Origin: a virus
Lineage: Duplodnaviria > Caudoviricetes
Direction: 5' to 3' (one strand)
DNA length: 56,583 nt
Virus record (IMG/VR): IMGVR_UViG_3300036790_000306
Coordinates: 1-56,583 of that record
Positions 51,935 to 52,194 of the stretch are shown here, in pieces. The translations under genes were made by a program, and so were the position numbers. Each line of letters begins with the position of its first letter. Position 1 is the first letter of the stretch. The notes under the pieces were generated by a model. That model searched no databases and was not told the origin of the DNA. It saw only the letters and a list, made by a program, of their open reading frames with translations.

Positions 51935-51993
51935 AGCGGCGCGGCCCACGAAAAAAGATGATCCTCGCAGAGACTCAAGATATAATACGCAAG

Positions 51994-52194
51994 TAGGGTA
52001 TGAGCCTATGAAGGCTCCCCCCGCTGTAAAGCGAAGGGGGCCTTCACGGCTGTGGCTGAAAGAGTGTGACCTCTAGCAACCACGAGGGTGAGGATAATTA
52101 GCATCCTCGCCTCCTTCCAGTCGTAAATTTGCCGTCTCACGACGACAGCGACTGGAAACCCTGGGTCAGGCGGGCTACGATAAGTAGCCCGCCT
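51994..52194 (+). ncRNA. Candidate structured ncRNA (five-way junction plus 3' hairpin)
   Basis: TATAAT at 51981-51986; six contiguous helices; GNRA loop; G-U pairs on + strand. Confidence 0.6.

Follow-up and report, generated by a model that had tools for sequence, protein, structure and literature searches.

What fills the gap in which the two convergent gene blocks of a soil phage end? The phage is a tailed virus (Duplodnaviria; Caudoviricetes) known from IMG/VR record IMGVR_UViG_3300036790_000306, a complete genome (56,583 bp) that bears a terminal repeat of 127 bp; we analysed the whole of this stretch and call it the window. Up to the stop codon at 51934, nearly all of its genes are oriented rightward. 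A leftward block ends at a stop codon at 52200, and the 265-bp gap between these convergent stops is occupied by a cluster of hairpins, the element studied here. A preliminary description, made from the sequence alone, had correctly placed it between convergent genes and had read it as a promoter-led noncoding RNA of about 200 nt with a five-way junction. We show that the hairpin cluster is real and exceptional on both strands and that it lies in lineage-specific DNA which appears to have replaced half of a neighbouring gene. Tentatively, and with the rival explanations weighed below in view, we read the element as an acquired sense/antisense RNA cassette that resembles a type I toxin-antitoxin system and is carried as a phage moron.

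Five adjacent hairpins are exceptionally stable on both strands

Folded as RNA, positions 51990-52196 reach a minimum free energy (MFE) of -111.8 kcal/mol on the plus strand (z -9.46) and of -118.2 kcal/mol on the minus strand (z -11.31), and on neither strand did any of the dinucleotide shuffles fold as well (0/200 each). The comparison with shuffled sequence, which the preliminary description had proposed as a check, thus places the fold far beyond chance on both strands. With DNA parameters the z-score is -9.19. We then scanned the genome in 1128 sliding segments of 200 nt on both strands with a correction for G+C content. The element was the extreme segment on both, at -6.2 and -6.3 standard deviations (sd), and the runners-up outside it lay at -3.8 sd (53451-53650, plus strand) and -3.3 sd (9451-9650, minus strand). 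Among 3033 segments from 38 related loci none was comparably structured, the lowest being at -4.06 sd; by the regression of that scan the element would lie at about -5.4 sd, a figure obtained by arithmetic that combines the two scans. A 336-nt stretch of the surrounding cassette gave z-scores of -6.1 on the minus and -5.5 on the plus strand, no better than the core alone. We therefore rejected the idea that the cassette's flanks are unusually structured themselves.

The cluster consists of five adjacent hairpins with spacers of 0-4 nt: four arms, A to D, followed by a perfect 11-bp hairpin (Table 1). All motifs named in the preliminary description appear in the pair list of the fold at the places given for them. 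On the plus strand the MFE structure makes up 3.6% of the ensemble of the 207-nt RNA, and most pair probabilities exceed 0.9. The CC/AA internal loop of arm A turns into two U-G pairs on the minus strand. No open reading frame (ORF) longer than 24 codons is found on the plus strand of the element and none there is preceded by a Shine-Dalgarno (SD) sequence, in agreement with the earlier view that the stretch is noncoding on this strand and extraordinarily structured.

The phage sequence is present in soil metagenome runs. Contigs from one of them, run X3, match the window at 51903-52167 and at 52187-52268 with 0 differences, which argues against an assembly artefact; being identical, these copies carry no variation. 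Runs X1-X3 are all soil runs of the same year and may share one campaign.

Neither a closing stem nor a preferred strand emerges from the fold

The preliminary description had joined the four arms into a five-way junction closed by a stem, P1. In the isolated 207-mer the pairs of P1 have probabilities of 0.78-1.0; in longer plus-strand context other pairings displace it. To weigh the closure against chance we kept arms A-D and swapped the two 13-nt flanks for random genomic 13-mers in 1000 trials. The energy gain equalled or exceeded that of the native closure (-9.3 kcal/mol) in 20.9% of the trials, and at least 6 closing pairs formed in 32.5%. Since closure by P1 is at chance level, the five-way junction is not established, and only the arms are statistically real.

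The plus strand had also been preferred on account of its G-U pairs and its GNRA loop, a preference that does not hold when both strands are counted. G-U pairs number 5 of 72 in the plus fold and 6 of 77 in the minus fold. Each G-U pair on one strand is an A-C mismatch on the other, and the split between the strands is even. Each strand likewise has a single GNRA loop (GUAA in arm A on the plus strand, GUGA in the inner stem of arm D on the minus strand), and the minus fold is the more stable of the two. Such an even split of G-U pairs (5 versus 6) is what would be expected of a sense/antisense pair and not of one selected strand.

The element lies in lineage-specific DNA at a truncated gene

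We compared positions 51400-52800 by BLASTN with 42 loci from relatives of the phage. On the left, homology ends at 51935, at the stop of a 97-aa gene (seen with locus L023). On the right, it resumes at 52262-52270 in 18 loci, in 16 of them at 52269/52270. No match to 51936-52261 was found in any of the 42 related loci, and in runs X4, X8 and X9 the contigs of relatives part from the window at these two positions as well, the X8 contig after 51936. The G+C content of the lineage-specific DNA is 0.536, compared with 0.569 and 0.572 in its flanks; its structured core has 0.572 and its short ends 0.51 and 0.46.

The right edge of this DNA falls inside the last gene of the leftward block. Residues 1-42/43 of its 64-aa product match a family with reads of 98-121 aa (three of the 21 family reads begin inside the gene). 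The C-terminus of this family, CxxC...ATFEHQRRRG...AAHWxCN, is conserved in 21 of 21 IMG/VR relatives and absent from the copy in the window. From these alignments, about 334 bp appear to have replaced about 78 codons, the C-terminal half of the leftward gene. We considered the 22-residue tail of the 64-aa ORF as a possible homologue of the relatives' C-termini, with a comparison at the nucleotide level too, and set this idea aside on finding no significant similarity (mean score, p 0.28; highest score, p 0.06); the right edge of the replacement could therefore reach left to 52200. In L023, the leftward gene and the 97-aa gene overlap by 15 nt tail to tail (1501-1863 and 1849-2139), with no spacer between them. 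The preliminary description had overlooked both this lineage-specific replacement and the small ORF described below.

The family of the truncated gene looks HNH-type. Pfam gave no match to it and PHROG gave 'HNH endonuclease' at E 0.095, so we leave it without a name. Its members begin with an invariant 'MIRRRPIP', come from soil phages and are abundant in run X4 (depth up to ~210). The copy in L002 loses similarity after about residue 31.

A candidate promoter faces a buried small ORF on the opposite strand

The hexamer TATAAT, seen at the left end of the element as described before, occurs once in the 56,583-bp genome on both strands combined, where shuffles give 3.9 +/- 2.1 copies. It precedes the first paired base by 7 nt and is oriented into the element; from the local composition we estimate the chance of this placement at ~0.001-0.01. 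The candidate promoter consists of a -10 hexamer only: the best -35 candidate at 17-nt spacing, judged by eye, has 3/6 matches, and a two-hexamer promoter scan of 51000-53500 called none. Across the phage, sigma-70-like two-hexamer sites numbered 2, 6 and 0, below the shuffle means of 7.0, 7.1 and 4.4. An A6 tract upstream of the hexamer may serve as an UP-like element of the plus-strand promoter, a reading that follows the E. coli consensus.

At the other end of the element, the 11-bp hairpin begins 5 nt past the stop codon of the leftward gene. It is a candidate for the 3' end of the plus-strand RNA, with the tail CCGAUUUAAAUCUUCU. The tail of the hairpin, CCGATTTAAATCTTCT, is partly U-rich and was not called terminator-like. 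None of the hairpins of the element passes a hairpin-plus-T-run test on either strand. The only terminator-like site in the scan of 51000-53500 is at 52779, outside the element; elsewhere in the phage, a hairpin-plus-T-run site is found at 10970-10990, just after the capsid gene.

On the minus strand, a 32-codon ORF preceded by an SD-like sequence lies opposite the arms. In the whole genome only 4 sites have the form AGGAGG-N4-9-ATG/GTG, and the start of the small ORF is among them. When the element was shuffled 5000 times with its dinucleotides kept, AGGAGG followed after 4-9 nt by ATG and at least 30 codons arose in 18 cases, a count that rises to as many as 238 of 5000 under looser definitions and that comes from a test defined after the ORF had been noticed. 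The predicted minus fold pairs 5 of 6 SD bases and 3 of 3 AUG bases (probabilities 0.67-1.0). Arms C and D bury both of them, and the AUG lies in arm C along with most of the SD sequence. The N-terminus of the putative peptide is hydrophobic, with a 10-residue run of mean 3.18. No relative of the 32-aa peptide was found by word search, by degenerate probes or as a usable match in the protein atlas. Most genes of the phage have no upstream SD sequence; the capsid gene is among the few that do.

The element matches no known RNA family and has no confirmed relative

The preliminary description had not recognised the element as a tRNA, tmRNA, 6S RNA or known ribozyme and had suggested an Rfam scan. 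This view stands: Rfam 15 gave 0 matches at the gathering score across the whole window, and ARAGORN reported 0 tRNA or tmRNA genes. Even at E<=10, the region 51800-52400 yielded only HgcC and ctRNA_p42d, each at 17.8 bits against a cut-off of 50. A group I or II intron, riboswitch or ribozyme was rejected, as there is no Rfam signal and almost no unpaired sequence that could form a pseudoknotted core. We also rejected a cluster of REP-like repeats, the arms being mutually unrelated and single-copy, and an attP, cos or origin, as the integrase gene is at 55501-56361, the terminase at 3626 and the element is without iterons.

To look for relatives we used a covariance model, R1, whose only input was the element itself with its predicted fold. 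Related loci were collected through the 97-aa protein (3 from IMG/VR and 12 from metagenomes), the DUF3846 protein (2), the terminase (4) and the 64-aa protein (21). Against the window and 9 loci, R1 found only self-matches. With filters off, it gave no credible match in the 12 metagenome loci or in the 21 IMG/VR loci, where the best score was 10.6 bits. In 30 whole related virus records (5 + 25) it likewise gave none. The sole match below E 0.01, at L020:2646-2872 with 17.3 bits, was rejected; many of its pairs are broken, and it lies inside two ORFs (2468-2776 and 2813-3103).

Searches by sequence gave the same picture. BLASTN of the element, set for distant matches, found nothing in 50,697 phage records or in 72,556 plasmids, and a scan of IMG/VR for exact 20-mers returned 0 hits. 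Six degenerate 8-residue probes, taken from the minus frame and covering all arms, gave 27 pattern matches in IMG/VR, none of which was confirmed. Scans for the terminase and 97-aa families in 185,579 species genomes (one per prokaryote species) revealed no related prophage. In run X4, which belongs to an unrelated 2025 soil study, depth bins suggest a contig at least 80% alike over 51997-52057. This interval corresponds to P1 and arm A, and the contig is the only hint of a relative for any part of the element.

A sense/antisense cassette would join the signals of both strands

We propose the following mechanism. A promoter with its -10 hexamer at 51981 would start a plus-strand RNA at about 51993. 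This RNA, of ~200-215 nt and with four compact hairpin arms, would end at or just after the 11-bp hairpin at 52168-52194. No terminator-like site is found between the leftward stop at 52200 and the element, and with no recognisable terminator there, transcription of the three leftward genes would run past the stop into the element and produce the mirror-image fold. On this leftward RNA, the SD-like GGAAGGAGG and the AUG would open the 32-codon ORF. As both are locked in arms C and D, the ORF would be silent as transcribed. The plus-strand RNA, perfectly complementary to the leftward RNA, would pair with it, probably from the 7-nt loops of arm C, and would block translation or trigger cleavage, keeping in check a peptide that may be toxic. 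Tentative as it is, a model of this kind would cover the symmetric stability together with the -10 box of one strand and the SD sequence and ORF that the fold of the other strand buries.

Several observations weigh against this proposal. The -35 region is poor and no promoter was called. No U-run directly follows the stem of the 11-bp hairpin. By eye, we found no minus-strand promoter in 52195-52268, and no terminator follows the minus-strand ORF. Since most phage genes lack an SD sequence, SD-led translation may matter little in the host. The hydrophobic run of the peptide has only 10 residues, and its best 19-residue Kyte-Doolittle mean of 1.64 makes it a borderline membrane helix. Finally, neither the element nor the peptide has a homologue anywhere that we searched, so there is neither covariation nor conservation of the ORF to draw on, and the shuffle counts for the ORF depend, as said, on how it is defined.

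What, then, of a single functional strand? A stand-alone structured plus-strand RNA acting in trans, as a decoy, sponge, anti-defence factor or regulator, would have its unique TATAAT correctly placed, and its compact fold with a well-defined ensemble, its GNRA-capped arm, its strong 3' hairpin and its partly U-rich tail would all be in keeping. So would the want of any SD-led ORF or ORF above 24 codons on that strand, and DNA that was acquired as a unit and matches no known family. The minus-strand ORF would then be a chance by-product of purine-rich stems. However, the minus strand folds better, and A-C mismatches on the plus strand are as frequent as G-U pairs, which is unexpected for a single selected strand. 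P1 is at chance level, homologues and covariation are lacking, the terminator is non-canonical and the promoter has no -35 hexamer. With the SD-AUG-ORF arrangement (18/5000 shuffles) and the strand symmetry also left unexplained, we regard this alternative as rather unlikely. In a stronger form of it, which we hold to be improbable, the element would be the first member of a class of phage RNA not described before, with no relative in Rfam or IMG/VR: a promoter-led, RNA-only moron of ~200 nt and four arms that acts in trans on a factor of the host or of a rival phage, for example as a decoy for a nucleic-acid-sensing defence protein.

Explanations that need no functional RNA fare no better against the signals on both strands. 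The element fills the gap between the stops at 51934 and 52200, its first hairpin beginning 5 nt past the leftward stop, and could be a passive structured spacer whose hairpins stop or slow RNA polymerase from both directions or shield 3' ends from exonucleases. About equal folding of the strands and strand-symmetric imperfections suit a spacer, which has no need of P1, and the convergent genes of relatives collide directly, overlapping in L023. Against this, one relative does without a spacer at the junction (L023), and no segment in the 38 related loci goes beyond -4.06 sd. No T-run follows any of the hairpins, although the phage has such a site at 10970-10990, and five long hairpins far exceed what termination needs. 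As the unique TATAAT and the SD-led ORF would also go unexplained, we consider a spacer unlikely. We give still less credence to a functionless scar, in which a foreign structured fragment (a host RNA gene or palindromic repeats) was captured by illegitimate recombination at the truncation, or to an element acting at the level of DNA through single-stranded DNA hairpins or a cluster of protein-binding palindromes. That the element is a singleton without relatives, coincides with a gene truncation and sits in a mosaic hot spot (a 1.3-kb insertion and a 31-bp repeat flanking the DUF3846 gene) speaks for such an origin, as do its strand-symmetric imperfections and its z-score of -9.19 with DNA parameters. 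Yet the source itself would have to be a strongly selected structure, and among rRNA, RNase P, tmRNA, introns and other families Rfam offers nothing usable at E<=10. Furthermore, the arms do not derive from a single repeat, R1 finds only the element in the genome, iterons and terminal inverted repeats at the edges are absent, the integrase gene is 3.3 kb away, and the coincidence of TATAAT with an SD-led ORF would again be unexplained.

Features of the element and its genomic neighbourhood

The coordinates of the element and of the genes beside it are collected in Table 1.

Table 1. Features of the hairpin cluster and the adjoining genes, in window coordinates
Feature	Position	Strand	Description
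Last gene of rightward block	51641-51934	+	97 aa, Cys/His-rich, no family
Lineage-specific DNA	51935-52268		334 bp; G+C 0.536 versus 0.578 for the genome; contains the whole element
A6 tract	51951-51956	+	25 nt ahead of the -10 hexamer; minus strand reads U6
Perfect TATAAT	51981-51986	+	Candidate -10 hexamer; predicted start ~51992-51993, 1-2 nt before P1
P1, 5' strand TAGGGT	51994-51999		Pairs with 52158-52163; 6 pairs including one U-G
Arm A	52003-52051		19 pairs in three helices; cap CGCT-GTAA-AGCG; loop GUAA on +, UUAC on -
32-codon ORF plus stop	52006-52104	-	Candidate small peptide gene wholly inside the element
Arm B	52052-52083		10 pairs on +, 11 pairs on -; 6-nt loop
Arm C	52086-52112		10 pairs; 7-nt loop, AAUUAGC on +, GCUAAUU on -
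SD-like GGAAGGAGG	52110-52118	-	Contains AGGAGG; 5 nt upstream of ATG
Arm D	52115-52157		Outer 10-bp helix and inner hairpin; loop UCAC on +, GUGA on -
P1, 3' strand ACCCTG	52158-52163		Partner of 51994-51999
Perfect 11-bp hairpin	52168-52194		G+C-rich; loop GAUAA on +
Truncated leftward gene	52200-52394	-	64 aa; last 22 residues (after 'DGREV') unrelated to the family

The genome carries the genes of a tailed phage, among them those for the large terminase (3626-5467), portal, head protease and HK97-type capsid. It also carries a tyrosine integrase gene at 55501-56361, and the phage is therefore probably temperate. The protein encoded at 51641-51934 has no Pfam or PHROG match. In order of transcription, the leftward block consists of ORFs 52993-52721, 52678-52391 (DUF3846) and 52394-52200.

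Other accessory DNA lies close by. In L011, L013 and L022, a homologue of the 67-aa gene at 50147-50350 directly precedes the homologue of the 97-aa gene, and in the window 1.3 kb of extra ORFs separates the two (50350-51641). Judged from this arrangement, the region 50350-51641 appears to be a hot spot for accessory DNA. A 24-nt inverted repeat at 50869-51071, 92% complementary and enclosing 155 nt, overlaps an 82-aa ORF (50854-51102) that has no relative in any locus collected. The RNA fold of 50860-51080 has a long closing stem of ~19 pairs (z -4.1), and 50869-51071 may represent another structured insert, or else a small element bounded by terminal inverted repeats.

To the right of the element, a 31-bp direct repeat, 97% identical between its copies at 52364-52394 and 52694-52724, flanks the DUF3846 gene (52391-52678). 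Both copies encode the gene start 'MIRRRPIPRS', and the second opens only a 14-codon stub. One contig of run X4 joins 52393 to 52657 and omits the DUF3846 gene, which looks like a cassette inserted by recombination at the conserved gene-start sequence. The second most structured plus-strand region of the genome, 53440-53660 (-3.8 sd; z -3.2), forms three hairpins and lies in the divergent region between a leftward ORF (53487-53299) and a rightward ORF (53643-53804). The start of the leftward ORF is one of the four AGGAGG-led starts of the genome, and the region is a candidate regulatory switch.

Comparison with known systems

Intrinsic and bidirectional terminators sit between convergent genes and consist of a G+C-rich hairpin with A and T tracts. 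The element resembles them in its position between convergent stops and in its G+C-rich hairpins on both strands. Unlike them, it has no T-runs, and it forms five hairpins with internal loops over 200 nt instead of one hairpin. The lysine riboswitch is a five-way-junction RNA, and the fold of the isolated element, with a closing stem, four arms and then a hairpin over ~170-200 nt, recalls it. However, the element has no Rfam match at E<=10, no downstream gene on the plus strand and a closing stem at chance level.

The PeSLs of T4-type phages are described as modules of a promoter and a stem-loop that mediate modular shuffling (PMC2839356). As in that description, a sigma-70-like -10 box stands beside stem-loops exactly at a junction where related phages differ through replacement of DNA. 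On the same account PeSLs are short, occur in many copies and recombine with each other, whereas the element is single-copy, far larger and part of no repeat family.

A closer likeness is found in type I toxin-antitoxin systems, in which toxins have 20-60 aa, their mRNAs 150-400 nt and the antisense RNAs 60-200 nt (PMC8594479). The same source also names SD sequestration, a 5' stem-loop and 5'-3' pairing as features of these systems (PMC8594479). The element offers a 32-codon ORF and a predicted antisense RNA of ~200 nt, and the leftward transcript would be the mRNA. Its SD sequence and AUG lie in a local hairpin, there is a 5' stem-loop and a possible 5'-3' closure, and both strands are structured. 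An antisense promoter may be supplied by the TATAAT of the other strand, which is directed through the ORF. In Ibs/Sib, too, a small ORF lies wholly opposite a small RNA. Set against these likenesses, no Rfam antitoxin matches the element, the peptide is borderline hydrophobic and has no homologues, and neither a promoter nor a terminator belonging to the mRNA strand was found.

An orphan within a recombination scar, the element may plausibly be a gene for a small RNA or for an antisense pair. The practical outcome of the analysis is a correction: the stability is real and unique in the genome, and the junction and the assignment to the plus strand are not supported. If it is transcribed as proposed, it would make up an accessory cassette of RNA only, carried by a soil phage whose host is poorly studied, and would offer a compact, very stable RNA fold for structural study.

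Morons are described as independent transcription units, gained by horizontal transfer, inserted between genes that adjoin in related phages and equipped with a promoter and a terminator (PMC3594210). The element shares with them DNA that is extra relative to related phages and a probably temperate phage as carrier, and it has a candidate promoter and a strong hairpin at the far end. A slightly lower G+C content is seen in the cassette as a whole and not in its structured core. Classical morons, in contrast, encode proteins, and the plus strand of the element encodes none; its DNA replaces part of a gene instead of lying cleanly between two genes, and its promoter and terminator are putative. 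While it fails every sequence-defined family tested, by analogy the element appears most like a moron carrying an antisense pair. If this is true, morons can carry antisense pairs or structured RNAs besides proteins.

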